The notes under the pieces were generated by a model. The model worked only from the letters and a program-made list of their open reading frames with translations. It had not been told where the DNA came from and did no database searches. 64,000 nucleotides of DNA from a virus (lineage: Duplodnaviria > Heunggongvirae > Uroviricota > Caudoviricetes): IMG/VR virus record IMGVR_UViG_3300021440_000001; one strand, written 5' to 3'. Each line of letters starts with the position of its first letter. Positions within the stretch are counted from its first letter, which is position 1. A program made the position numbers and the translations under genes. This document shows positions 3,747 through 44,888 of this stretch, piece after piece.

Positions 3747-4331
3747 ATGTTGGTCATTGAGGATTTCAAGAATGAGTGTGGCAAGTGGACGTATACATTA
3801 AATGTGAGCGGTAGGCATACTTTCACTGTCGGTGGAAAGTATTACAACAATATGACTAACAGGTGCAAAATCGGAGGGAGCTTTCAGAAGCTTAATCCGA
3901 CCTACATTGGCTGTACAACCACTTTTAAGTCTTGTCATGACTTCGTGGAGTGGGCCATAACACAAGTAGGTTACGGAGAAGGCACCTTAGATAAGGACAT
4001 ACTGTTGAAAGGAAATAAGGTCTACTGTCCAGAACTCTGCGTATTTGTGTCAGCGGAGGTCAATTCCACTCTGACAAAAAGTAATGCTATCAGAGGTGAG
4101 TGGCCTATCGGAGTTTGCTTGGACAAGAAGCGGAATAAGTTTTATGCGTATGTAAAAGTGAAGGGAAAACAAAAACACCTAGGCTCTTTTACTTCACCGC
4201 AGGCCGCTTTCGCGGCTTATAAGAAAGCTAAAGAAGACGAATGCAAGACTCTAGCTGAAGAGTACAAGTCACAAATCGACCATCGTGTATACCAAGCCCT
4301 GCTAGCGTACACTGTCGAAATTGACGACTGA
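3747..4331 (+). CDS. HNH-AP2 homing endonuclease, family A, copy 1
   Basis: FKNExGxWTY...GGxYYN...RCK...YIGCTTxFKSCHDFxEW (HNH_3-like) plus AP2 domain WPIGV...F.A...G..KHLG.F...EAA.AY; four paralogs in this window. Confidence 0.8.
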   Translation: MLVIEDFKNECGKWTYTLNVSGRHTFTVGGKYYNNMTNRCKIGGSFQKLNPTYIGCTTTFKSCHDFVEWAITQVGYGEGTLDKDILLKGNKVYCPELCVFVSAEVNSTLTKSNAIRGEWPIGVCLDKKRNKFYAYVKVKGKQKHLGSFTSPQAAFAAYKKAKEDECKTLAEEYKSQIDHRVYQALLAYTVEIDD

Positions 4332-5432: not shown

Positions 5433-5763
5433 GGCTCGCCTGTGGTGGCGGGCTTTCTGCTGCAATTTCAGGCTGTTTTGCTTAACTACGAAAACTGCAT
5501 TTTTAAGCAAACCCTGCTTTTTCTATTGCAGCCTATCCGCTGGTGATGCCCGATGGCTATCCTAGGGCATAGAATGGCCCTACAAGGGCCTGAAACCGCC
5601 TAAGCCACACTCGCCTCTTCGGGGCCGGGTGAAACCCGTCACGCCTGCGGCGTGCCTCGCTTCAGGCCATTGCATGGCGTTTTAATGCCTCGCGTGTTAC
5701 ATTCTAGATACTGCATTTTTGTGCATATAAGCTGCTGATTTTATTGTAGTTTTGCTCAACAGC

Positions 5764-6063
5764 ATGTATGGCGCCATAGGCGCCAGCAATCAAAGGCGTG
5801 CCACACGCGGGCGAGCGGGCGAACCCGTCCGCGTGTTTATTGTGCAATGCTTGCCCCTTCGGGGCTTGTTTGTGGTGCAAGGAATGGCGCCTAGGCGCCT
5901 TTTTATGGCGGACCAGTCCGCAAGCAAGAAAGGCCCCAAAAGGGGCCAAAACAGGCGCAAAAGCGCCTATAAATCCGGCTTTTTGGGGCGGCTTGTCCGC
6001 CACTCGCCCGGCAAAAAGAAAACCCGCCCAAGGCGGGCTGTATGGCGCCTAGGGCGCCTTTAA
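5764..6063. repeat. three copies of palindromic motif ATGGCGCC-TA(G)-GGCGCCTTT among dense GNRA/UUCG-loop hairpins
   Basis: copies at 5764-5787, 5881-5905 and 6039-6063; two further copies at 11443-11462 and 11645-11662. Confidence 0.6.
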
Positions 6064-6264
6064 TCAATAGCCTAGCACTGCGCGAGACTGTGCCAGAGTC
6101 TCGACACAATCGAACACAGAAACCGCCGTTCCATCCGGCAGGATGTCGATTGATTCAATCCGCACAAACCCGCCTTGAACCAAAACGGCACGCTGACCGG
6201 CAAGCCCGATATCGTTGGAGTTTACAAATTTTGCGATCCGGACTAGTTCTTGAGAATGTGACAT
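6064..6264 (-). CDS. hypothetical protein (66 aa)
   Basis: ORF at the distal end of the minus-strand cassette. Confidence 0.4.
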   Translation of the reverse strand: MSHSQELVRIAKFVNSNDIGLAGQRAVLVQGGFVRIESIDILPDGTAVSVFDCVETLAQSRAVLGY

Positions 6265-6277
6265 TTTTAGCTGCGGT

Positions 6278-6429
6278 TATTTGCCGGGGAAAAGCTTTTC
6301 CGCCATCTCTCCCATCTTTGCTCTAGCCCACTGCGCGCGCTTCCAGTCACCGGACTGGGCGTATTCTTGTTCAAGCTTTTCCAGCTTTGCCCAGATGGAC
6401 AGGACTTTAGATGCGTGATCGTGTGCCAT
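6278..6429 (-). CDS. hypothetical small protein (50 aa)
   Basis: ATG-initiated ORF MAHDHASKVL...; below ORF-track cutoff. Confidence 0.3.
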
Positions 6430-6531
6430 GTGTTTAACTCAGTTAGCTCAGTTGGTTAGCGAGTGAATAAATTCTGAAGCTTTTCAAAGCCCCTGTCGAG
6501 AGTCTTAGAAAAGCCCTTTCGGGCTTTGTGG

Positions 6532-6960
6532 TTATTCTTCGCTGAAGTATTCAAAGGCGCGGCAGACTTCCTCAAGCATGAACCATGCCAGCGCGTTGTA
6601 AATCACGGTTTCGCCCTTGCTCTTCGGGCCGTGCAGCGTGTCGATAACTTCGTCGTACGAAAAATCGCCCTTCAGGCAGTTGAAACCCTGCACCATTTCT
6701 GCCGTATTCATGCCGTATTCACGGGCCTGCAACTTGCAGAACGCCACTATTTCCGGGCGGTACTTTTTGGCAAATGCTTCAGTTTCGGTGTAGTAGATGA
6801 AGCCAGAGAAACCAGAGTCAGCGCCGTGGTTGCACACATCCTGTGCCGTTTCCTTGAACGCTTGCCAGCCGCCCAGATTGCGCACGATGGCGCGGATCAC
6901 GCGGCTGTCGATTTCGGTGGAAGCGATGAAGGCGCGCAGGGTCTTGATGGTCTTGGTCAT
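6532..6960 (-). CDS. hypothetical early protein (142 aa)
   Basis: ATG preceded by GAAAGA SD and a TTGACA/TAGAAT promoter. Confidence 0.6.
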   Translation of the reverse strand: MTKTIKTLRAFIASTEIDSRVIRAIVRNLGGWQAFKETAQDVCNHGADSGFSGFIYYTETEAFAKKYRPEIVAFCKLQAREYGMNTAEMVQGFNCLKGDFSYDEVIDTLHGPKSKGETVIYNALAWFMLEEVCRAFEYFSEE

Positions 6961-6997
6961 TTTGTTCTTTCGGGGGTGTTTGGGAGTCGATGAACGT

Positions 6998-7024
6998 ATT
7001 CTAGGGCTTGTTTTTGTTTGTCAA
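6998..7024 (-). promoter_or_regulatory. sigma70-like promoter (TTGACA-N15-TAGAAT) for gene 6532..6960
   Basis: reverse complement of 7019-7024 is TTGACA; -10 TAGAAT. Confidence 0.5.
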
Positions 7025-7045
7025 TCCCCTTTTTACTGTAGGGCT

Positions 7046-7357
7046 TTAGATTTCGCGGATCAGGTTTTTCTCTACCATATCCGCCCAGCAAGCAACAATT
7101 AACCGATGTCCGATAAAAACAACAGTTGTTGCGTATGCGTCGCCTGTGTTTGCATAGTATACATGATCGCCGGAAGGTTTGTAAATACCTAAATATTCAA
7201 TTCCAAATGTTTGCAGAATTCCGTCGATTTTTTCACGGGCGGGGCCACGCTTCAGGTTTTCTTCCTTCCACGCTTTGCGGATGGCGCGGGCGTCAGCGCG
7301 CGTCACATCCTTGATTGTTTCCAGCTTTTCAACACTTGCGGCGGTGCGAATGTTCAT
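7046..7357 (-). CDS. hypothetical early protein (103 aa; ORF-track start 7387 is a GTG upstream of the promoter -10)
   Basis: ATG at 7357 lies downstream of promoter 7388-7416. Confidence 0.5.
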   Translation of the reverse strand: MNIRTAASVEKLETIKDVTRADARAIRKAWKEENLKRGPAREKIDGILQTFGIEYLGIYKPSGDHVYYANTGDAYATTVVFIGHRLIVACWADMVEKNLIREI

Positions 7358-12703: not shown

Positions 12704-13293
12704 TTACAGTGATTGTAGATGACTTTACCCGAGACGGTTTGTGGGTGAAGCAGATGTGGACAGAAGGAGAGAAGCACCTTACTCGGGCATATCTTCGTTG
12801 GAGGGCGATGAACAACCGCTGCAAACCTGGCGGGTGTACGCAGCGCAGGTCGGTAACATATATTGGTTGCTACATGTCTCCAGAATTTCAAGACTTTCAA
12901 CTATTTACGGGGTGGTGTCAGCGCCAACCCGGCTACGATAAGGTGGGGTGGCAACTCGACAAGGATATTCTTATAAAAGGGAACAAGTGCTACAGTCCTG
13001 ATACGTGCGTGTTTGTCCCGCGCGAATTGAATGCGCTGACACTGAAGCACGACAAACTGAGGGGTGAGCTTCCGATAGGAGTCAGCCGTAAAGGGTTGAA
13101 ATTTCAGGCGCAGTGCAATGTGGAGGGTAGGCGAAAGTGCATCGGGATATTCAACACAGCGGCAGCGGCATTTCTTGCGTACAAGAGCCTCAAAGAGGCT
13201 ACAGTACGGTGTATGGCAGAGAAATACAAGAGCGAGATTGACCCGAGGGCCTACGAGGCGTTGATGAGCTTTACAGTGGGCCTTGACGACTAG
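12700..13293 (+). CDS. HNH-AP2 homing endonuclease, family A, copy 2
   Basis: paralog of 3747..4331 (CKPGG...YIGCY..FQDF..W, AP2 tail); start overlaps ligase stop (ATGTGA). Confidence 0.8.
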   Translation: MITVIVDDFTRDGLWVKQMWTEGEKHLTRAYLRWRAMNNRCKPGGCTQRRSVTYIGCYMSPEFQDFQLFTGWCQRQPGYDKVGWQLDKDILIKGNKCYSPDTCVFVPRELNALTLKHDKLRGELPIGVSRKGLKFQAQCNVEGRRKCIGIFNTAAAAFLAYKSLKEATVRCMAEKYKSEIDPRAYEALMSFTVGLDD

Positions 13294-15850: not shown

Positions 15851-16398
15851 TTGAGATAGACTACGAAAAAGCTAGTGGGAAATTTTACTACGACGAGACG
15901 AGTACCTCTTGCCTTCGCCATATGACAGGCCAACCGGCTGGTTATCTGTGTAAGACAAGTGGGTACTATAAAGTCACTATTGCAGGCCAAGACGTTATGG
16001 CTCATAGGGTTGTCTTCTGCCTTAATAATAGAGGCATACCAAACAACTTAACTGTAGATCATATAAATGGCGTTAAAAGTGACAACAAAATAGAAAATTT
16101 GCGTTGCGTCCCTCAAGTAGTAAATACTCACAATACGGGTGTAAGATGTGATAACACATCCGGAGTAAAAGGCGTCCACAATAAAGTCAGGGAAATCCCA
16201 AGCGGAAAGACATTCAGCTATTGGGTAGCGACGTGGATGGAAGGCGGAAAGGTCAAAGAGAAGGCGTTTTCTATGCTAAGACACGGAGATAGTGCTTTTG
16301 ATCTTACCGTTAAGTTCAGACTCGCCAAGCTAGATGCCTTAAACTCGACTGGTGCTGAATACACTGCAAGACACAAGGGCATCATCAACACCAAGTAA
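15847..16398 (+). CDS. HNH-AP2 homing endonuclease, family B, copy 1
   Basis: FYYDETS.SCLRH..., VDHINGVKSDN (HNH), AP2-like C-terminus; paralogs at 39946, 40839, 42518. Confidence 0.75.
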   Translation: MIEIDYEKASGKFYYDETSTSCLRHMTGQPAGYLCKTSGYYKVTIAGQDVMAHRVVFCLNNRGIPNNLTVDHINGVKSDNKIENLRCVPQVVNTHNTGVRCDNTSGVKGVHNKVREIPSGKTFSYWVATWMEGGKVKEKAFSMLRHGDSAFDLTVKFRLAKLDALNSTGAEYTARHKGIINTK

Positions 16399-18515: not shown

Positions 18516-19098
18516 ATGAATATAGAAGACTTCAAGACTGAAAGTGGAGAGTGGGCGGGGACGGATACGTTAGGCGGAAAGACCGTATTCACTATTGGCG
18601 GACGGTACTACCATAATATGCGACAACGCTGCAAGGCGGGTGGGGCTAATCAGGGACGAAGGCCGACATACACTAGCTGCACTACAACTTTCAAGTCTTG
18701 CCATGAGTTTATTGAGTGGGGCAGGAAGCAAGTTGGGTACGGGACTGGGGGAGTTGGACAAGGACATTTTGCTGAAGGGCAATAAGGTCTATTGCCCAGA
18801 GTTGTGTGTATTTGTCCCTAGACAGGTAAACCTGCTACTTGTAAGCTGCAACAACAGCAGAGGAGCCTACCCGCTGGGCGTCTCTTACAACAAGAAGGCT
18901 GCTAAATTTGTTGCTCAACTGCGTTGCAACGGACGGGTGGAGTACCTTGGGCTGTTTCCCTCGCCAGAAGCCGCATTCGCAGCCTACAAAGTTGCAAAGG
19001 AAGCTGAAATCAAGCGTGTTGTCAATTTACACATTGATAGTCTTGATTCGCGTGTGTCTACGGCTCTGATGGGCTATAATGTTGATATCAACGACTGA
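18516..19098 (+). pseudogene. HNH-AP2 homing endonuclease family A, copy 3, interrupted by a +1 frameshift in a G5 run (about 18748)
   Basis: N-terminal half in ORF 18516..18785, C-terminal half in ORF 18595..19098; removing one G from ACTGGGGGAG restores ...QVGYGTGELDKDILLKGNKVYCPELCVFV... Confidence 0.7.
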
Positions 19099-24004: not shown

Positions 24005-24814
24005 AATGACTGGCGAATGTAAAACCTGTTGAATTGCTGGGACACCCTAACGTACAATGGCGAGGGCAATCAGCAGCGAAGACGTGAGCTACCTCTTATT
24101 TGAAAGGAGGTAGGTATGGAAAGAAAGACTGTGCGTTGGTCGCCGTCTTATGATGTTTACGAGGATGGCAGGGTTTGGAGCAGGCACACAGGGAGGTTAT
24201 TGAAGCCCTTCTTGTCCACACAATCTGACGAGTACTTGTCAGTGAAGCTGTGCGAAGACTGCGAAGAACGGACAATCAGTGTGCATAGGCTTGTAGCCGA
24301 GCACTTTGTCCCTAATCCTGACAACCTAGGAACTGTCAATCATAAAGACGGCAACAAACAGAACAACCATCGTAGTAACCTAGAGTGGATGACTCAAGGC
24401 GATAACAAGCGGCATGCGTTCCAAACCGGAGTGTCTGTTGCTTGGTGGCAAGGAGATACACACTCTAGAAGCACTTTCACCAACGAAGAAGTGCATGAGA
24501 TTTGCAGCCTGTTCCAAAGCGGTGTGAAGCCGCTGGACTTGGCGAAGTCCACGACGCTCTTGTACCAGAAGCTGTTTAGAATCTGGAACAGAGATAACTG
24601 GAAGTCGATTTCTAAAGACTATAGTTGGTAGCTCACGTAACGTTCAACGACTATCGAAACCACGCAGCAATGCGGAAGGGAGTAGAGTAGGAAGCAAGCC
24701 TATGGCTTCCGAAGTGGCAGGGGACGAAAGTCCATGATATAGTCTGAACACGCAGGAGACTGCGTGCGGAGGTTAAATCCTCGGGTGGTTGTTGCGAAGC
24801 CACTGAACAAATTG
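24005..24814 (+). other. group I intron in the DNA polymerase gene (carries an HNH ORF)
   Basis: exon ends in U, with P1 pairing ATTCGU/GCGAAU; intron ends in G; conserved core GACTATCGAAA...GAGTAGAGTAGGA...GATGATATAGTCYGA shared with the nrdA introns; spliced product gives DFDSL|EAKIEAH matching T7 DASGLELRCLAH. Confidence 0.7.
24116..24631 (+). CDS. intron-encoded HNH homing endonuclease (NUMOD-like N-terminus + HNH_3)
   Basis: VNHKDGNKQNNHRSNLEW; GAAAGGAGGTAGGT RBS inside the intron; paralog at 37487. Confidence 0.75.
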   Translation: MERKTVRWSPSYDVYEDGRVWSRHTGRLLKPFLSTQSDEYLSVKLCEDCEERTISVHRLVAEHFVPNPDNLGTVNHKDGNKQNNHRSNLEWMTQGDNKRHAFQTGVSVAWWQGDTHSRSTFTNEEVHEICSLFQSGVKPLDLAKSTTLLYQKLFRIWNRDNWKSISKDYSW

Positions 24815-32044: not shown

Positions 32045-32248
32045 TTGGTTGTTGAAGATTTCAAGAATGAAAAGGGCGAGTGGGTATATGGTAGACAGAT
32101 ACAGGGGAAGAGATCAATTACAGTTGGAGGTGGGTACTTCAACAGCATGAAGACTAGGTGCAAGAGAGTCGCCGAAGAGTACAAAGACCAGATTGATCCG
32201 CGTGTGTATCTGGCCTTGCTTGATTACACTGTTGAAATTGACGATTGA
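32045..32248 (+). pseudogene. internally deleted remnant of a family A HNH-AP2 endonuclease (N-terminal 40 aa fused to C-terminal 27 aa)
   Basis: MVVEDFKNEKGEWVY...GGGYFNSMKTRCK | RVAEEYKDQIDPRVYLALLDYTVEIDD. Confidence 0.7.
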
Positions 32249-36299: not shown

Positions 36300-36475
36300 C
36301 TCTTAATCAAGAACAAATGACTCCGTGGGAACCTGAGCGTGACCGTCTGACGTTGAAGATTCTCGGCAAACAACTTGAAGAGCTGAATGAACTCGGCTCT
36401 GCAACTGCCCGGTGCATCATTCAAGGCATCGAGGGGCGCGAGCCGGTCACAAAGAAGCCGAGTGCAAGAGAGTAG
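36296..36475 (+). CDS. hypothetical small protein (59 aa)
   Basis: ATGA overlap with the upstream gene. Confidence 0.35.
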   Translation: MTLNQEQMTPWEPERDRLTLKILGKQLEELNELGSATARCIIQGIEGREPVTKKPSARE

Positions 36476-36552
36476 CCGAAGAGTACAAATCCAAAATTGA
36501 CTCTCGTGTATACAAAGCACTGCGGAGTTACACTGTAGACATTACTGATTAA
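36458..36552 (+). pseudogene. C-terminal remnant of a family A HNH-AP2 endonuclease (CKRVAEEYKSKIDSRVYKALRSYTVDITD)
   Basis: matches the last 29 aa of copies 1-4; no upstream coding partner. Confidence 0.55.
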
Positions 36553-36561
36553 AGGAGTAAA

Positions 36562-37362
36562 ATGCTTAGAGCAATTCGTAAACGAAGTGGGGAAGTTGTC
36601 TGGTTTGATGCAAACAAATTAAATCGCTGGGGAGAATGGGCCGCTGGGATCGGAGTAGACTGGAGCGGAGTCGCCCTTGAAGCTACCCGCAAGTGTTTTG
36701 ACGGCTGCACAACTGATGATCTTCACAAGGCATTGATTGCTGCTTGCGTTGACCGAGAGACTACCGCACACCTGAAAATGGCTGGGCGCCTGTATATCGG
36801 CGCAATCTACAAGCAAGCCTTCGGCGATTGGCGTGAAATTCCGAGTGTGCAGGATATGTACCGCAAGATGTCCAAACTCGGCCTATGGGCAGAAATGGAC
36901 TACGCGGAAGAAGAGCTGAGCTACTGCAACGAGTTCATCAACCACGAACTCGACATGCAGGCCACGCTGACGGAAACCAAGCAGATCATCGACAAGTACG
37001 CTATCTCAGACCGGGTTGACAAGAAGGTCTATGAAACTCCGCAGTTTGTGTATATGCGGATGGCCCTCGGCAACATGGAGAAGATGCCGAAAGATCGACG
37101 TATGCAGGACGTGAAGAAGCTGTACACCTTCCTGTCACAGAAGAAGATCAATCCGCCTACGCCGTTCAGCCTAAACCTTGGGACTGAGAAGAAGCAGTAC
37201 GCTTCGTGTTGCGTCTTTACAACAGAGGACTCCGCTTCGAGCCTTGCTGCTGCTGACCACATCGCCTACATGATGACCTGCGCATCGGCTGGCATTGGTG
37301 GGCACATCAAGACCCGTAGCAAGGGCGATAAGGTCCGCCAGGGCGCTATTCAGCACATGGGT
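36562..37362 (+). CDS. nrdA: class I ribonucleotide reductase large subunit NrdA, exon 1 (3' boundary approximate, 37362-37370)
   Basis: ATP-cone-like N-terminus; ...SAGIGGHIKTRSKGDKVRQGAIQHMG aligns with E. coli GGGIGINAGRIRALGSPIRGGEAFHTG. Confidence 0.75.
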
Positions 37363-38181
37363 AAATATTTGCCCCTGTAAGCCGGAAGGTTTACAGAAAA
37401 CCTATTGAATTGCTGGAAGGCTAAGGCGCAAGCTATGCTAATCAGCAGGGAAGGCTTCAAGTACGACCTTTACGAAAGGAGGTTGTATGCGAAAATACTG
37501 GACGACAGAAGAGATAGAGCTACTGACAGAGTTTGCCTCGTGTGGCAGGTCATTTATTGAACTTGCTACAATGCTTGGGAGAACACTGCAAAGCGTGCAG
37601 CATAAAGCTAGCAAGCTGTCAATTACGTTTGTACGAAAACCTGCCAAAACACTGTACGGTGAAGTGTGGGCGAAGTCTTACGTAGATGATGTTCTAGTCT
37701 CAAATCATGGAAGATTCAAGCGGGCCAGCACCAACTCTCTCCTAAGCGGAACTGTTCTTCAAGACGGCTACGTTCAAGTAGAGGTTTCCAGAAGTGGAGG
37801 CGCGGTCAAATGCTATGCACACCGGCTTGTTGCAGAGGCGTTCGTGGAGAACCCAGACAACAAGCCAGAGGTCAACCATAAGAATAGGAACAAAGCTGAC
37901 AACTCGGCAGAAAACCTAGAATGGGTGACAAGAAGTGAGAACATGATTCACGCCCATGCTACGGGATTTATCCGTAGGTAGGCTATTGTCGTACTTGAAG
38001 CAACCTTCAGAGACTATCGAAAGCACGCGAAAGCGGAAGCGAGTAGAGTAGGAGAGCGAAGCCGATGCGCCTCCGAAGTGGTAGGCACCTGTTTACAGGT
38101 GATGATATAGTCCGATCCTACGCGAAAGCGTATGGCAGCACGTTATGGTGCGGGGCACACTTGCAAAGTGTCCGAACTTTG
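37363..38181 (+). other. group I intron 1 of nrdA with HNH ORF (boundaries approximate to within 10 nt)
   Basis: 5' region AAAACCTATTGAATTGCTGG and 3' core GACTATCGAAAGCACGCGAAAGCGGAAGCGAGTAGAGTAGGA...GATGATATAGTCCGA nearly identical to the pol intron. Confidence 0.65.
37487..37981 (+). CDS. intron-encoded HNH homing endonuclease (paralog of 24116..24631)
   Basis: VNHKNRNKADNSAENLEW; GAAAGGAGGTTGT RBS. Confidence 0.75.
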   Translation: MRKYWTTEEIELLTEFASCGRSFIELATMLGRTLQSVQHKASKLSITFVRKPAKTLYGEVWAKSYVDDVLVSNHGRFKRASTNSLLSGTVLQDGYVQVEVSRSGGAVKCYAHRLVAEAFVENPDNKPEVNHKNRNKADNSAENLEWVTRSENMIHAHATGFIRR

Positions 38182-38658
38182 AAACTTCCATACTACAAGG
38201 TCCAGCAAGCGGCTGTATCGGCCAATTTGCAGGCTTCCCGTGGTGGTGCTAACACGATGCACTTCAACGTCATGGACCCGGAGATTTTCGACCTGCTGAA
38301 GTTGAAGAACGTCCAGACCATTGCCGACAAGCGTATCAAGGACATTGACTACTCTGTAGGGTACAATGACGAGTTCGCCCGACGTGTAGCTGCGAACGAG
38401 TCTTGGATGCTGGTCAGTTACGGTGACGCCCCAGAGTTGTACGAGGCCATGTATGACGGTGACTCGAAGAAGTTTGTCAAGCTCTACTCTGAGGTAGAGG
38501 TAGACGAGAGCATTCAGAAGCAGTTCGTGAGCGCAAGAAAAATTGCCATCACGTTCTTGACTGAAGCTGTTGAAACTGGCAGACTATACGAGCACAACAC
38601 AAGCGAGCTGAATCGTCACACGCCTTTCAAGGACACTATCTACTCTAGCAATTTGTGT
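38182..38658 (+). CDS. nrdA: nrdA exon 2
   Basis: KLPYYKVQQAAVSANLQASRGGANTMHF aligns with E. coli CIPFYKHFQTAVKSCSQGGVRGGAATLFY; ends ...YSSNLC. Confidence 0.7.
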
Positions 38659-38905
38659 TAAATCTAGCACCCTTGCACGGTGACGTGCATTGAACAACCC
38701 ATTGAACTCAGGGGAAACGTAGGAAACGTAATCCTGATCGAAGCCTATTTATAGGAACGAGCAACGACTATCCCGAAAGGGAGTACACCCAAGCGGGTGG
38801 AAGCGGTGGGCATCTCTAAAGGAGATGATGATATAGTCTGGTCTGCATAGGGATATGCAGCAGCCGAAAGGCGGGAAGTGATTAGCGACCACTTCTGAAC
38901 TTACG
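38659..38905 (+). other. ORF-less group I intron 2 of nrdA (247 nt)
   Basis: exon ends in U, intron ends in G; contains GACTATCCCGAAAGGGAGTA...GGAGATGATGATATAGTCTGG core; splicing yields NLC|QEIGLPT, colinear with E. coli NLCLEIALPT. Confidence 0.7.
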
Positions 38906-39898
38906 CAAGAAATCGGCCTTCCGACTCTGGGCTACAACTCAGTGTATGACTTGTACCGGCCTGTGCCGGCTGCGTTCCAAGTTATCGAAGACATGGGCGA
39001 AATTGGCCTGTGCTCTCTTGCAGCTATTGCCGCAGGGCTAGTCAGTGACGAAGAGTATGAAGAGGTTGCCTATTATGCTTCGTTGATGATTGATAACGTC
39101 ATCGACATCATGGAATACCCGTTCCCGCAGTTGAAAGTCACAGCTCAGGCTCGCCGCAGCATTGGAGTAGGCATCACAAACCTCGCCTTTGCGATGGCCA
39201 AGGAAGGGCTGAAGTACAGTACGCTGGAAGGTAAGCAGTACATTTTCAGGCTTGCAGAGCGCCACAGCTATTACCTGCACAAGGCCTCGCTGCGGCTTGC
39301 CAAAGAGCGCGGCATCTGCGAATGGGCTGACCGAACGAAGTATTCTGAAGGCTGGCTTCCCATTGACACGGCGAACAAGGAAATCCAGCGTCTGATTGGA
39401 CAACCTCTGCTGTGTGACTGGGAAGCACTCCGCTCTGAAATGAAGGCTATTGGCGGACTCCGCTTCTCGGTACACGAAGCGCATATGCCATGCGAGTCCA
39501 GCAGCGTTGCTGGTGGGCACACGAACGGCCTGTACCCGATCCGTGCATACAAGGTTGTCAAGACATCTGGAACAAACAAAAACTTGTTCATTGCTCCAGA
39601 ACTTGATACACTTGCATCGAGCTATGAGCTTGCGTGGGAGATTCCTACGAACGACATGATCGACGTGTATGCTATTGTCCAGTGCTTCACTGGTCAGGCT
39701 ATCTCTGCCGACCTGTACATCAAGTACGACAAGGAAGGCAAACGAGAGCTGTCGGCGAAGACGCTGTTGCAAGAGTGGCTGCGACGTGTTAAACTTGGCA
39801 TGAAGACGAAATACTACACTAATTCTTCCACAGGTGTAGAGTTGGACGCTTCTCCGAAAGAAGAAGAAGCCCCGGTGTGTGACAGTTGCTCGCTTTGA
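38906..39898 (+). CDS. nrdA: nrdA exon 3 (C-terminal CxxC tail ...EEAPVCDSCSL)
   Basis: EIGLCSL..., PIDT..., HEAHMPCESSSVAGGHTNGLYP (essential Tyr-Tyr region), C-terminal redox-shuttle Cys pair. Confidence 0.8.
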   Translation, partial: QEIGLPTLGYNSVYDLYRPVPAAFQVIEDMGEIGLCSLAAIAAGLVSDEEYEEVAYYASLMIDNVIDIMEYPFPQLKVTAQARRSIGVGITNLAFAMAKEGLKYSTLEGKQYIFRLAERHSYYLHKASLRLAKERGICEWADRTKYSEGWLPIDTANKEIQRLIGQPLLCDWEALRSEMKAIGGLRFSVHEAHMPCESSSVAGGHTNGLYPIRAYKVVKTSGTNKNLFIAPELDTLASSYELAWEIPTNDMIDVYAIVQCFTGQAISADLYIKYDKEGKRELSAKTLLQEWLRRVKLGMKTKYYTNSSTGVELDASPKEEEAPVCDSCSL

Positions 39899-39899
39899 C

Positions 39900-39925
39900 G
39901 GAAAGGGCTTCGGCCCTTTAACAGT
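39900..39925 (+). terminator. hairpin AGGGCTTCGGCCCT (UUCG loop)
   Basis: stem-loop after nrdA; weak T tract. Confidence 0.35.
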
Positions 39926-39945
39926 TAAGAAAGGACAAAGGACAA

Positions 39946-40572
39946 GTGCCGAAGGCAAAGGACACATCACACATTGACTGGACCACTCACTTCTACTACG
40001 ATGAGATCAGTCCTTCTAAGTTGCGCTGGGCGAGGAATGCCGGCCAAAGGGCACCGATTGGCAGTGTTGCCGGGTGCCTGAACAAAAGTTCACCCTACTA
40101 CCGAGTCAGACTTGATGGGCAGACCTATCAAGTCCAGCGCATCATATGGGAGCTGCACTTCGATGGACTGAAGCCTGAAGATGTTGTTGACCACGAAGAC
40201 GGTAATAGCTTGAACAATTTAATCGGCAATCTTCGGAAAGTGACTACTGAAGTCAATACACGTAACAGGCGGGCACGTACAGACAACTCATCTGGTGTCC
40301 AAGGTGTATCACGTACATCAAACGGTAACGGCTCTTTCTACTGGACCGCTTGCTGGTGCGAATTGAACGGTAAGGCGTGCAGGAAAGCCTTTTCAGTCAA
40401 GAAGTACGGTGATGAAAAAGCATTCAACCTAGCTTGCGATTTCCGCGCTACAGTGATAGACTCCCTCAATGCAAACGGTGCAGGATACACCGACAGACAT
40501 ACCAACTCTTCGACTGGTGTCGATCTTCTGATCGAAGAGCCAGAGCCTGTTTGCGATAGCTGTTCACTGTGA
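39946..40572 (+). CDS. HNH-AP2 homing endonuclease, family B, copy 2, carrying a recoded duplicate of the nrdA C-terminal tail
   Basis: HFYYDEISPSKLRW..., VDHEDGNSLNN; last 22 aa ...TNSSTGVDLLIEEPEPVCDSCSL parallel the nrdA end ...TNSSTGVELDASPKEEEAPVCDSCSL. Confidence 0.75.
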   Translation: MPKAKDTSHIDWTTHFYYDEISPSKLRWARNAGQRAPIGSVAGCLNKSSPYYRVRLDGQTYQVQRIIWELHFDGLKPEDVVDHEDGNSLNNLIGNLRKVTTEVNTRNRRARTDNSSGVQGVSRTSNGNGSFYWTACWCELNGKACRKAFSVKKYGDEKAFNLACDFRATVIDSLNANGAGYTDRHTNSSTGVDLLIEEPEPVCDSCSL

Positions 40573-40614
40573 TACACTGCGGGGCGAAAGCCCCGCCCAT
40601 TCAAGGAGAAACCA

Positions 40615-40839
40615 ATGCCTGTGACTATTCACCGAAACGACTCCCGCGTTCGCACTTACGAAATTGAAGACCTGCAAGACGGGGACGCATACGAGTGCGA
40701 CGGAGACATCTACATCATAAACAAGCACCACGGGGCCGGTGTTGCCGGATTCTCAATCGACGGCAATAGCATCCTCTGGGAAGACAATCTCCATAGCGCC
40801 AAGCTGATCCCTATCAACCTCGAAATCACCGTCTGCTAA
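40615..40839 (+). CDS. hypothetical protein (74 aa)
   Basis: AAGGAGAAACC RBS. Confidence 0.5.
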   Translation: MPVTIHRNDSRVRTYEIEDLQDGDAYECDGDIYIINKHHGAGVAGFSIDGNSILWEDNLHSAKLIPINLEITVC

Positions 40840-41438
40840 TGACTGTATTCAACGCACAAAATACTGAATGGAAGAGCCACTTCTACTACGATGAGACGAG
40901 TCCGACTTGCCTGCGTTGGGCGAGGGAAGTCCGCAGAGGAAAGGAGCTAAGAATTCTATTCAAAGTTTTTGGTGATGTGGCAGGTAGCGTCTCGAAGGGC
41001 TACTCTCAGGTCAGTTTAAGTGGGCGCAATTACAAGGCAGCCAGAGTTGTGTGGGAACTCCACAACGGCCCGATAGAGCTTGGGTTGGACATTGACCACA
41101 TAGATGGGGACATACATAACAACCGTATCGGAAATCTCCGAGCGGTGAAAACCGTCGTAAACACCCGCAACTGTAGGCTGCGCATAGATAACAAGTCTGG
41201 TACAGCCGGTATCTCCAGAGTAGTTAAAAAAGGATATACATACTGGCGCGTAGTTTGGTATTCTATAGAATGTAAGCGACATGAGTTATACTTCTCTGCG
41301 CTAAAGCTTGGAGAGTGTTGGGCAGAAGCCTCTGCAACTAAATTTGCACTCGATAAGAAAATAGCCTTGAATGCTCAAGGTGCAGGGTACACAAATCGTC
41401 ACGGAAAGGAAGTAAATGCCTGTCTTCAATTGCAATAA
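40839..41438 (+). CDS. HNH-AP2 homing endonuclease, family B, copy 3
   Basis: MTVFNAQNTEWKSHFYYDETSPTCLRW, IDHIDGDIHNN. Confidence 0.75.
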   Translation: MTVFNAQNTEWKSHFYYDETSPTCLRWAREVRRGKELRILFKVFGDVAGSVSKGYSQVSLSGRNYKAARVVWELHNGPIELGLDIDHIDGDIHNNRIGNLRAVKTVVNTRNCRLRIDNKSGTAGISRVVKKGYTYWRVVWYSIECKRHELYFSALKLGECWAEASATKFALDKKIALNAQGAGYTNRHGKEVNACLQLQ

Positions 41439-42531
41439 TACTGAGTGGGTTAGCGGAGAGGGTACGCTGTTCCTCGGGCAACAGCCTGGGCTGCACGACA
41501 CTATCAACACGCGGTTCCCAGAGATTTCAAAACTTGCATTGCGGCAGGTATCTCAACGCTGGGTATTTGATGAGTTTAACCACGAGCAGTCCAGGCTCGA
41601 CCTACTGAACTGCCCTGAATCAGTGTACAAAGTAATGCTGATGAACTTGGCGTACCAGTGGCACGCCGACAGTGTAGCAAGCCGGGCTATCGCGCCACTG
41701 TTTGCACCGTTTGTGACAAACTCTGAACTATGGGAAGCACTGTTAGAAAATACCAACATGGAGATTACCCACGCTAAGACGTACAGTGAAATCGTTCGGC
41801 AGTGCGTTGCCGACCCGAGTGAAGTTTTCAAGATGGTAATGGAGAACGAAAAGACCATCGCCCGATCTTCCACGGTCAACAAGGTGTTCGATGGCCTTGC
41901 TGTTATTGGCGCCCTGCGCACGCTGAAAGAAAATGGCGTCAATCAGTTTGCTGTCGGAGAGCAGACGCAGTACAATACGGCGTTCATGGCCGTTGTCGCT
42001 TTGTACTGCCTTGAGCGAATTCAGTTCATGGCGTCATTTGCTGCAACCTTTGCTATTGTCGAGCAAGGCTACTTCCAGAGCATTGGCAAAGCTGTCCAGA
42101 AGATCATGCTTGACGAAATTGCAGTGCATGCAGCACTTGATGCCGAAGTGCTGAAGGTCGAACTTTCTACCGAACGTGGCTTGATCGCTCGAAAAGAGTG
42201 TGGTAAACTGATCCACATGATGCTACAAGAGGTTGTTGACCAAGAGCTTCAGTGGTCAGAATACCTGTTCAGCGAAGGCCGAGCTATCGTTGGACTGAAT
42301 CCTGCGCTGCTGAAAGACTGGGTACGCTACAATGCTCAGCCTGTGTTCGACGCCTTGGGCTATGATTTGGACTGGGATCGCATCACTGTCAACCCGCTTC
42401 CGTGGATGTTATCATGGATAAATATCGATAAAACCCAGAATGCCAACCAGGAGGCAGATGGGAACAATTACGCACTTAATGTCGTTAAAAACGACATTGG
42501 AATCAACGAGGTGTTCGATTTTGAGTTGTGA
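41416..42531 (+). CDS. nrdB: ribonucleotide reductase small subunit NrdB; the first 13 codons derive from a family B endonuclease N-terminus
   Basis: LFLGQQPGLHDTINTRF aligns with E. coli MFFGQPVNVARYDQQKY; ferritin-like E..H motifs; N-terminus MPVFNCNNTEWVS matches MTVFNAQNTEWKS of 40839. Confidence 0.75.
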   Translation: MPVFNCNNTEWVSGEGTLFLGQQPGLHDTINTRFPEISKLALRQVSQRWVFDEFNHEQSRLDLLNCPESVYKVMLMNLAYQWHADSVASRAIAPLFAPFVTNSELWEALLENTNMEITHAKTYSEIVRQCVADPSEVFKMVMENEKTIARSSTVNKVFDGLAVIGALRTLKENGVNQFAVGEQTQYNTAFMAVVALYCLERIQFMASFAATFAIVEQGYFQSIGKAVQKIMLDEIAVHAALDAEVLKVELSTERGLIARKECGKLIHMMLQEVVDQELQWSEYLFSEGRAIVGLNPALLKDWVRYNAQPVFDALGYDLDWDRITVNPLPWMLSWINIDKTQNANQEADGNNYALNVVKNDIGINEVFDFEL

Positions 42532-43327
42532 GTTTAATGAGTATTTCTACTACGATGAGAGTAGTCCGTCATGCTTGCGGTGGAGAATAGAAGTACGTTG
42601 TGGTAATGGGTATAATCGTGCTAAAACAGCAGTTGGCGACGTAGCTGGAACGATTCGTGTATGTACAAACGGTAGACGGTACTGGCAAGTAAAGGTGGCC
42701 GGCAGAGCATACTCTGCGCACCGGATAGTGTGGGAGATACACAACGGTACTATACCTAATGGTTGTGTCATTGATCACGAGAACCAGGATTCGCTTACGA
42801 ATAATATAAGCAACCTCCGCGCAGTAACTCAGGCAGTAAACTGTAGGAACATGCAGCGCAGTGTGGCGAATACCTCTGGTACAACAGGAGTTTGCTTGAG
42901 CACAAACTCCCATGGGACTAAAAGTTGGATGGCAAGCTGGTATGGTCTGGACGGTGTACGGAGGTTCAAGCAATTTAGTACAGGGAAGTTCGGTTACGAC
43001 GAAGGCTACCGCCTTGCATGCGAACACCGCGAAGCAATGATTCGACAACTAAACCTGCAAGGGTGCAGGATACTCTCAACGACATGGAAAGGAACTGATA
43101 CAATGATTTTTGTCTACAGCAAGGGCGCCTGCCCTCAGTGCGACAAACTGAAAGCCGAGCTGAAGATTCACGGAACTGAGTACACTGAGGTCCGCGTCGA
43201 TCAAGACTCAGACGCAATGAAATTTGTCCGAGAAGCAGGACATCGCAGCGTTCCGCAGGTATACTCTGCGTATTGCGGTGGCGAATACATCGGTCAACGC
43301 ATGGTTGACGTTGCCCGATTCATCTGA
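42518..43327 (+). CDS. HNH-AP2 homing endonuclease family B, copy 4 (TTG start), C-terminally truncated and open in frame into the glutaredoxin gene
   Basis: FYYDESSPSCLRW..., IDHENQDSLTNN; loses homology after ...RQLNLQG and runs without a stop into MIFVYSKGACPQCD. Confidence 0.6.
   Translation: MLSCEFNEYFYYDESSPSCLRWRIEVRCGNGYNRAKTAVGDVAGTIRVCTNGRRYWQVKVAGRAYSAHRIVWEIHNGTIPNGCVIDHENQDSLTNNISNLRAVTQAVNCRNMQRSVANTSGTTGVCLSTNSHGTKSWMASWYGLDGVRRFKQFSTGKFGYDEGYRLACEHREAMIRQLNLQGCRILSTTWKGTDTMIFVYSKGACPQCDKLKAELKIHGTEYTEVRVDQDSDAMKFVREAGHRSVPQVYSAYCGGEYIGQRMVDVARFI
43102..43327 (+). CDS. glutaredoxin (NrdH/T4 NrdC-like), 74 aa
   Basis: CPQC active site, ...HRSVPQVY...GG..IG; own AAAGGAACTGAT RBS + ATG inside the longer ORF. 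Confidence 0.7.
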
Positions 43328-44309: not shown

Positions 44310-44888
44310 TTGGTTGAAGACTTCAAAAACAATCGCGGGATGTGGACCTATCAGCCAAGAATTAACGGGAAGCAAGTGTTCACTGTCGGAGGCCAGTATT
44401 ACAATGCGATGGCTAATAGGTGCAAACCAGGAGGATACGTTCAGAAGAACCACCACACTTACATTGGCTGCACTACTACTTTCAAGTCTTGCCACGACTT
44501 TATTGAATGGGCAAGGAACCAAATTGGGTATGGATCAGGGCAATTAGACAAAGATATTCTGTTAAAAGGAAATAAAGTGTACTGCCCAGAGCTTTGCGTG
44601 TTTGTGCCAAAGGCAGTTAACGTGCTTTTTACAAAACATGATGCCGCGAGAGGTAACTGGCCGATTGGCGTGAGCTGGGATAAAGAAAAAGAGAAGTTTC
44701 AGGCAGGTTTCAGAGTCAAAGGAAAGCGGAAACACCTAGGCCGCTTCTCAACTCCAGAGGCAGCTTTCGCAGCTTATAAAACTGCCAAAGAAGCCGGATG
44801 TAACCGGCTCGCAGTAGAATATAAGCCACAAATCGACCCTCGTGTATACCAAGCCTTGCTTAACTACACTGTTGAAATTGACGACTAA
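44310..44888 (+). CDS. HNH-AP2 homing endonuclease, family A, copy 4 (TTG start)
   Basis: LVEDFKNNRGMWTY...YIGCTTTFKSCHDFIEW...AP2 tail; 70-80% identical at protein level to copy 1. Confidence 0.8.
   Translation: MVEDFKNNRGMWTYQPRINGKQVFTVGGQYYNAMANRCKPGGYVQKNHHTYIGCTTTFKSCHDFIEWARNQIGYGSGQLDKDILLKGNKVYCPELCVFVPKAVNVLFTKHDAARGNWPIGVSWDKEKEKFQAGFRVKGKRKHLGRFSTPEAAFAAYKTAKEAGCNRLAVEYKPQIDPRVYQALLNYTVEIDD

Follow-up and report, generated by a model that had tools for sequence, protein, structure and literature searches.

HNH and HNH-AP2 endonuclease genes were previously described beside the ribonucleotide reductase (RNR) genes of phages, together with co-conversion tracts and frameshifted remnants (PMC10448857, PMC2790892, PMC2988022), and 18% of the surveyed IPA-HNH genes adjoin RNR genes (PMC10448857). 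The locus reported here lies in a stretch of 64,000 nucleotides (nt) from a virus of the Caudoviricetes (IMG/VR record IMGVR_UViG_3300021440_000001; the whole stretch is called the window), in which three endonuclease genes, named HEG1, HEG2 and HEG3, are interspersed with nrdA, nrdB and the glutaredoxin gene grx. Its described counterparts are mobE, located between nrdA and nrdB of T4, and the IPA-HNH genes (HNH-AP2) of ICP1-like phages. As here, these are HNH genes between nrd genes that display presence/absence polymorphism, co-converted flanks and decaying copies. Unlike in these systems, two of the three genes of the window were not cleanly intergenic: HEG1 reads into a displaced nrdA tail and HEG2 starts on a displaced nrdB start codon. 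Chimeric junctions of this kind were not encountered in the searched passages of PMC10448857 and PMC2988022.

An HNH endonuclease gene within RNR coding sequence is likewise known from Aeromonas phage Aeh1, where mobE lies in nrdA at a conserved site with the enzyme still functional ('genes in pieces', Friedrich et al. 2007; PMC2988022). In Aeh1, nrdA yields two polypeptides, whereas nrdA and nrdB of the window are full length and not in pieces, because a spare terminus appears to have arrived with the endonuclease. For T4, experiments established that homing can be one-sided, with junctions at microhomologies (Parker et al. 1999, according to PMC2988022). There too, homology was confined to a single side and the other junction lay at a microhomology, which was proposed as a route of mobile elements to ectopic sites. 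Yet, the T4 work used an intron-encoded enzyme in a construct made in the laboratory, while the window holds a natural footprint of free-standing genes from which the mechanism is deduced. In fungal mitochondria, a foreign or duplicated C-terminal segment of cob or atp6 likewise adjoins an endonuclease open reading frame (ORF), the other copy being left downstream (PMC6279837). The fungal cases concern other organisms and the GIY-YIG and LAGLIDADG families, and in the window a 5' end is affected as well, with the endonuclease taking over host initiation signals. The Allomyces atp6 hybrid gene is an endonuclease-associated terminus duplication of the same type.

Our results showed a foreign end on the host gene, with the original end beyond the endonuclease, for HEG1 (nrdA 3' end) and HEG2 (nrdB 5' end), but not for HEG3. 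The three genes probably entered an nrdA-ORF74-nrdB-grx arrangement by one-sided homing, with phages of greater divergence as donors in a break-induced gene conversion. The locus illustrates established homing biology cleanly and in nature without revealing a new type of system, and it preserves both outcomes of homing under broken synteny: a 3'-end duplication on one side of ORF74 and a 5'-end duplication on the other. In a limited literature search, no description was found of a phage endonuclease reading into the displaced tail of a host gene, or starting on its displaced start codon while supplying the replacement.

The reference for this comparison was contig IMGVR_UViG_3300035180_000125 (L004), found through a search with NrdB; L003 is a second copy. 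Its gene order is nrdA, hairpin, ORF74, nrdB and grx, with neither endonucleases nor introns, and protein identity to the window is 89-96% for its NrdA exons, for NrdB and for Grx. HEG1, HEG2 and HEG3 are all missing from L003 and L004, a presence/absence polymorphism among close relatives, and sharp identity steps adjoin each insert. L004 was colinear with the window apart from the inserts, homology breaking exactly at the three endonucleases. Matching blocks were 38906-39840 of the window with 4746-5680 of L004, 40499-40877 with 5656-6039, 41416-42495 with 6001-7080, and 43087 onwards with 7108 onwards. The L004 segments 5656-5680 (TNSSTGV codons) and 6001-6039 (first 13 nrdB codons) were each matched twice in the window and therefore correspond to the two duplications. 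A preliminary description of this DNA, made from its letters alone, had proposed an alignment with endonuclease-free relatives; at the sequence level, L004 defines all three insertion points. From nrdA onwards, the order on the + strand is nrdA, hairpin, HEG1 (39946-40572), second hairpin, ORF74 (40615-40839), HEG2 (40839-41438), nrdB (41416-42531), HEG3 (from about 42521) and grx (43103-43327). The features are listed below, SD standing for Shine-Dalgarno sequence.

36562-37362, 38182-38658 and 38906-39898 (+), the three exons of nrdA, split by two group I introns

39797-39898 (+), imported nrdA 3' end, with codons ...KTKYYTNSSTGVELDASPKEEEAPVCDSCSL and stop; tail 57% identical to the L004 tail

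39902-39919 (+), imported hairpin AAAGGGC-TTCG-GCCCTTT, downstream of the nrdA stop now in use, then the SD and GTG start of HEG1

39946-40500 (+), HEG1 proper, HNH_3 and AP2, from a family-typical N-terminus (MPKAKDTSHIDWTTHFYYDE) through ...GAGYTDRH

40499-40572 (+), resident nrdA tail, now the last 23 codons of HEG1, in frame; it agrees with the nrdA tail of L004 at 67/74 nt (91%)

40579-40596 (+), resident hairpin GCGGGGC-GAAA-GCCCCGC, as after the L004 nrdA stop; 38/42 nt identical downstream of the stop

40615-40839 (+), ORF74, a small gene particular to this lineage that separates nrdA from nrdB and ends in a stop overlapping the following ATG (TAATG)

40839-40877 (+), resident nrdB start, ATG and 12 codons (MTVFNAQNTEWKS), with which HEG2 now begins; these 13 codons agree with L004 at 38/39 nt

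40878-41438 (+), HEG2 proper, from HFYYDE to the stop; the SD for the imported nrdB start lies in its last codons (GGAAAGGAAGTAAATG)

41416-41775 (+), imported nrdB 5' tract, about 360 nt of co-conversion that take in the replacement start MPVFNCNNTEWVS; nt identity to L004 is 56-87% in 45-nt windows

41776-42405 (+), resident nrdB core; all 45-nt windows share 93-100% of their nt with L004

42406-42531 (+), imported nrdB 3' tract; following a series of windows at 100%, identity to L004 falls to 39-84%; tail ...NDIGINEVFDFEL and stop

42521-43106 (+), HEG3 in its ancestral frame, from a probable TTG start; minus one G it ends in GAGYSQRHGKELIQ and stop, the TGA overlapping the grx ATG (ATGA)

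42679-42977 (+), HEG3 segment deleted in five other assemblies, 299 nt including the HNH motif, not a multiple of 3; deletion junction in a GTAC microhomology

43061-43063 (+), frameshift site, GGG with one extra G, 14 codons ahead of the ancestral HEG3 stop

43103-43327 (+), grx, with its own SD and ATG; Pfam Glutaredoxin at 3.9e-12; 96% amino acid identity to L004

By their domains and layout, HEG1, HEG2 and HEG3 are identified as free-standing HNH-AP2 homing endonuclease genes. All three exceeded the gathering score of the Pfam family HNH_3 (2.1e-8, 1e-13 and 6.6e-15, respectively) and AP2 was recognized in HEG1 (5.8e-10, 39.8 bits) and HEG3 (1.4e-8, 35.3 bits). HEG2 gave no AP2 match in Pfam at E<0.01, yet it is 66% identical to its nearest relative, the AP2-bearing P0003. 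Matches to PHROG 99 ('HNH endonuclease') reached 8.5e-36 and 6.9e-37. The three proteins displayed 38-44% mutual identity, and a fourth paralogue occurs at 15883-16392. Protein ends were compared among 92 short family members. Canonical ones end in RHG(T/KE), the stop usually following 2-5 residues after RH (median 2; exactly 2 in 49 of the 92), and a conserved W stands 3-4 residues ahead of FYYDE in 64 of them. Free-standing members without duplications were found in the nrdA-nrdB spacer of L006, L049 and L054, nrdA and nrdB being adjacent in the wider clade (L005, L007, L049, L052-L055). Among several hundred retrieved members, no other displayed a CxxC tail or an NrdB-like N-terminus, and within this set the chimeric ends are unique to the window lineage.

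The preliminary description had noticed three chimeric sequences, namely the NrdA-like end of HEG1, the endonuclease-like head of nrdB and a frame left open from HEG3 into grx, and all three were found at or very near the places it gave. HEG1 (ORF 39946-40572) ends in ...GAGYTDRH-TNSSTGVDLLIEEPEPVCDSCSL and nrdA (to 39898) in ...YYTNSSTGVELDASPKEEEAPVCDSCSL, each followed by a stop. With 23 residues after RH, HEG1 was the sole CxxC-tailed protein among the 92 short members; the CxxC tail of NrdA is, as established for E. coli NrdA, the redox shuttle. The two tail copies displayed 62% DNA identity to each other. Since the HEG1-fused copy agrees with L004 at 67 of 74 nt and the present nrdA tail at 57%, the fused copy is the original resident NrdA tail, and the one now on nrdA arrived with HEG1. 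Behind the fused tail, the same downstream gene (ORF74) and its SD are found as in L004, and the 47 nt past the present nrdA stop are 44% identical to the sequence past the L004 nrdA stop. Within nrdA, identity to L004 was 91-100% over 39572-39796 and then 67% at 39797-39838. NrdA, once its two introns are removed, is colinear with L004 NrdA down to a complete CxxC tail, and the imported 3' end now appears to serve as the functional tail. Compared with L004, the insert would cover about 39797-40498, i.e. a foreign nrdA 3' end, stop, hairpin, SD and HEG1 up to ...GAGYTDRH. Its right junction reads CAT-ACC versus TAT-ATC in L004, a 2-nt AT microhomology at the codons after a Tyr-Tyr pair, which corresponds to the radical-transfer tyrosines of E. 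coli NrdA. The cut site of HEG1 is predicted near these codons. Both post-tail hairpins (39902 and 40579) fold, but they are not typical terminators. The N-terminus of HEG1 resembles those of L054 and P0005.

The fused tail had been presented as a recoded duplicate of the nrdA end. It is indeed a duplicate, but recoding need not be invoked, the divergence between the copies being comparable to that between the co-converted flanks and L004 (56-87%). A deliberate recoding was discarded on the grounds that ordinary divergence between donor and recipient suffices. L049, which shares the EEEAPVCDSCSL peptide with the imported nrdA tail, was rejected as its donor because nt identity to that tail is only 62%.

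HEG2 displayed the reciprocal situation at the 5' end of nrdB. Present nrdB (from 41416) starts with MPVFNCNNTEWVS and HEG2 (ORF 40839-41438) with MTVFNAQNTEWKS, 9 of 13 residues and 30 of 40 aligned nt being alike; this NrdB-like N-terminus is restricted to HEG2 and is not a family trait. The preliminary description had seen here an endonuclease start fused in frame onto nrdB, a direction that had to be inverted. L004 NrdB starts with MTVFNAQNTEWKS followed by GEG, and endonuclease-free relatives begin in the same way: MTISIFNKENTEWMT in RP13, VFNIHNTEWKD in L005, MTVFNIKNSGW in L007 and MTVFN(V/A)(N/S)NSGWKT in L052 and L053. Since these phages share it, the MTVFNxxNTEW motif is native to NrdB, as are the 13 codons that carry it; such an N-terminus in endonuclease-free phages had been named beforehand as the finding that would refute the proposed fusion, which for nrdB is thereby refuted. 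More generally, native NrdB N-termini and NrdA tails are present in RP13, L005, L007, L049 and L052-54.

HEG2 has thus taken over the resident nrdB start, nrdB now running on an imported 5' end whose head agrees with L004 at 29 of 40 nt. Upstream of the HEG2 start, 35 of 39 nt are identical to L004, the overlap with the ORF74 stop included, and HEG2 would still be translationally coupled to ORF74. In L049, its relative P0003 occupies the nrdA-nrdB spacer as a free-standing gene that starts with MIDWKDYFYYDE and ends in RHGKE and stop; GGAAAGGAG of P0003 serves as nrdB SD in that contig. From this free-standing form, the HEG2/nrdB join was placed in a TGGAA microhomology at (D/E)-W-K codons, where it keeps the conserved W of the family in register. 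The cut site of HEG2 is predicted at or 3' of nrdB codon 13. HEG2 illustrates how an endonuclease can end up translated from the start codon of an essential gene while that gene uses imported signals. At its 3' end, HEG2 (41398-41438) reads GGA AAG GAA GTA AAT G.. and P0003 (L049 4540-4565) GGA AAG GAG TAA; the HEG2 stop is displaced, apparently by this one-base difference, and HEG2 overlaps nrdB by 23 nt.

Gene nrdB was further compared with L004 in 45-nt windows and the profile is that of a mosaic, with diverged tracts beside HEG2 and HEG3 around an L004-like core. At the protein level, NrdB residues 14-120 displayed 79% identity to L004 versus 99% for the core, the full length being 371 residues. 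The imported NrdB tail, IGINEVFDFEL (42496-42531), is atypical when set against the clade consensus G-(D/E)EELDF. The C-terminal tail of NrdB is the part that binds NrdA. In the window, the same nt also encode the likely SD (GAGGTG) and the likely TTG start of HEG3. The nrdB genes of L008 (5028-6001) and L055 (2616-3589) contain an interruption of about 970 nt at codon 117, in which no Rfam family reached its gathering score.

HEG3 has no stop before the glutaredoxin ORF in the window, and grx retains its own SD (GAAAGGAA) and ATG, as had been reported. Its start, first placed at 42518, is most plausibly the TTG at 42521, which follows GAGGTG and fits the family N-terminus; the grx ATG is at 43103. 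The read-through had been taken for an insertion footprint. It occurs because the extra G of GGG (43061-43063) shifts the HEG3 frame, and all five other assemblies covering the site (L045/L087, L047, L088, L089 and L090; the same phage, 99.9% identical, from ENA and Logan samples) read CAAGGTGCAGG, i.e. GG. The homologous place in HEG1 and HEG2 is GGTGCAGG(A/G)TAC. With the extra G confined to the window, the HEG3-Grx fusion appears to be a single-allele lesion, an accident, and not a conserved fusion. Four start choices for the fusion protein were looked up and none was on record. A homology search in 5.8 billion protein clusters returned endonuclease-only proteins of at most 51% identity, devoid of a Grx domain, and grx was called as a separate 74-residue gene on 13 contigs. 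Programmed frameshifting at GGG was rejected, no slippery motif being apparent around it and the sister alleles having GG. A natural NrdB-glutaredoxin fusion, with a C-terminal CPFC domain, was observed in the annotated NrdB of Vibrio phage PWH3a-P1 (L002 4983-6338); that one is genuine, in contrast to the accidental read-through of the window. For annotation, 'endonuclease-CxxC' is best regarded as a leftover and 'endonuclease-glutaredoxin' as a frameshift, not as new domain architectures.

To judge from these alleles, HEG3 is decaying through two independent lesions, the extra G and the 299-nt deletion, or else the extra G is an error of the window contig. Contig L046 stops at the deletion junction (42682) and L048 goes 9 nt past it along the undeleted sequence (42691). 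The deletion is the common allele in other samples, and these contig ends suggest that both alleles coexist and break assemblies. The right junction of HEG3 lies within GAAAGGAA, which represents both its H-G-K-E codons and the grx SD (aligned to L045, L047 and L004), and L004 homology resumes at GAAAGGAACTGATACAATG in the nrdB-grx spacer, where L004 is identical. The last nine resident nrdB codons (eight and the stop) were replaced at HEG3, not duplicated. The earlier view of insertions that duplicate host-gene termini thus holds for HEG1 and HEG2, L004 having a single copy of each terminus, and fails for HEG3, where the open frame is a frameshift and no footprint.

Under one-sided homing, the donors would have had the order nrdA-HEG-nrdB with the family in a short spacer, as opposed to a recipient with ORF74 between nrdA and nrdB; because of ORF74, donor and recipient would be homologous on one side only of each break, whether it fell in the 3' end of nrdA or in the 5' end of nrdB. 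On the nrd side, homologous repair would have copied in a foreign nrdA or nrdB stretch together with the endonuclease, and on the ORF74 side an illegitimate join would have formed at a microhomology. Such one-sided homology would leave a crossover and co-conversion tract on the nrd side, and a microhomology with a stranded resident terminus on the ORF74 side. The HEG1 event would have put a foreign 3' end onto nrdA and stranded the resident tail downstream, where it happens to be in frame with HEG1. In the HEG2 event, the resident nrdB start codon and ORF74 coupling would have come to drive HEG2, with the foreign nrdB 5' end, its SD lying in the HEG2 3' end, driving nrdB. The HEG3 event would have taken place between nrdB and grx, the ancestral stop overlapping the grx ATG. 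Microhomologies at the three illegitimate junctions were AT (HEG1), TGGAA (HEG2) and GAAAGGAA (HEG3). The scheme also offers predicted cut positions for two uncharacterized HNH-AP2 enzymes, near the nrdA Tyr-Tyr codons and in the nrdB 5' region. The sequence comparison itself establishes which copies are resident or imported, the mosaic tracts, the frameshift and the polymorphism, from which repair mechanism, donor order and approximate cut positions are deduced.

Several points speak against one-sided homing. No donor genome was found, the imported tracts being about 60-80% identical at most to any contig retrieved, and 'resident' and 'imported' are relative calls from one relative lineage (L003/L004) whose background identity to the window is 85-100%. 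The nrdA-HEG-nrdB donor order was seen for HEG2-like genes, but the only counterpart of HEG1 in that order, in L054, is 43% identical to it. P0002, the homologue nearest to HEG1 (52%), lies outside an RNR context, as does the best HEG3 homologue (P0040), so that both are uninformative on the donor. Both chimeric junctions are in frame, although that of HEG1 is not needed for expression, and chance (1 in 3) is inseparable from use of the tail. GGG was seen in the window contig only and may be an assembly or sequencing error.

The shared in-frame logic of HEG1 and HEG2 at opposite gene ends would also be expected if an endonuclease and a spare, diverged host-gene end formed an adapted mobile unit that spreads whole. 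A free-standing endonuclease could in this way sit inside coding sequence without intron or intein, the spare end keeping the gene intact, resisting self-cleavage and escaping recombination with the end it displaced. At 62-75%, the repeats differ sufficiently to make their deletion difficult, HEG2 acquires both start and translational coupling from an essential gene, and the endonuclease-associated duplications of cob and atp6 C-terminal segments in fungal mitochondria (PMC6279837) offer a precedent. Such a cassette is nevertheless unlikely: its chimeric ends recur nowhere among the several hundred family members, relatives carry the family as ordinary spacer genes without duplications, and the repeats are just as diverged as the co-converted tracts beside them, leaving special recoding unneeded. 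It would be rather surprising, too, if the unit were transmissible as a third route, besides introns and inteins, into essential coding sequence, with HEG2 parasitising the nrdB initiation signals, or if, separately or additionally, the NrdA tail of HEG1 were used, e.g. for redox control or for docking to glutaredoxin, thioredoxin or the RNR complex.

The version of the preliminary description, in which an endonuclease start was fused onto nrdB and endonuclease-CxxC and endonuclease-Grx fusions were possibly functional products of insertion, has in its favor frames that are open through both fusions in the window and a conserved N-terminal W of the family that resembles the 'TEW' of NrdB. It is very unlikely, given an NrdB N-terminus native to endonuclease-free phages and a Grx fusion hanging on a G that is missing from five assemblies with a different lesion in HEG3. 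The search of 5.8 billion clusters brought up nothing resembling this fusion, and the frameshift removes the conserved GAGY..RHG end of the family. Collapse or mis-joining of strain variants during metagenome assembly is least to be expected as the origin of the chimeric junctions, and would be an extraordinary coincidence. The locus is polymorphic, and the ends of L046 (42682) and L048 (42691) at or beside the HEG3 deletion boundary suggest a branch in the assembly graph. Yet, the HEG1 and HEG2 junctions were identical in at least five independent assemblies from different pipelines and samples (JGI, ENA and Logan; L044-L048, 99.8-100% identity) and are therefore not assembly artefacts; only the extra G is without independent support.

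All group I introns recognized by Rfam lay inside nrdA (37353-38134 and 38649-38860); the stretch 39898-43327 contained none. HEG1, moreover, comes after the nrdA stop codon, and an intron-encoded endonuclease was rejected. The nrdA introns (37363-38181 and 38659-38905) are both missing from L004, and each splice site follows T and ends in G. Intron 1 contains an HNH_3 ORF (37487-37981) and its two halves, with 35.7 and 32.4 bits, remained under the Rfam threshold. Intron 2, devoid of an ORF, scored 81.8 bits and lies between codons NLC and QEI, a position at which L008 also has a group I intron (68.7 bits).

ORF74 was seen by tblastn only in the window lineage and in L004 and matched neither Pfam nor PHROG. 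Compared with its L004 counterpart (5771-5998), its ends are conserved, the whole protein being just 60% identical, far under the adjoining nrdB core. Megablast of the 6.9-kb locus against phage genomes found no close relative, with short intron-core matches only, and metagenome contigs scanned with NrdB gave none either (best match 66%). Promoter and terminator scans and folds of the junction regions stayed at chance level.

Endonuclease genes are also crowded elsewhere in the window (3753-4328, 12712-13290, 18522-19095, 32048-32245, 36451-36549 and 44310-44885, as well as 15883-16392 and 24137-24430). Besides the fourth copy of the HEG1-3 family and a paralogue of the HNH_3 ORF of nrdA intron 1, a second family occurs (192 residues, AP2, PHROG 953), of which three copies are intact, a fourth is frameshifted and two more survive as remnants, one remnant lying directly upstream of the nrdA start.

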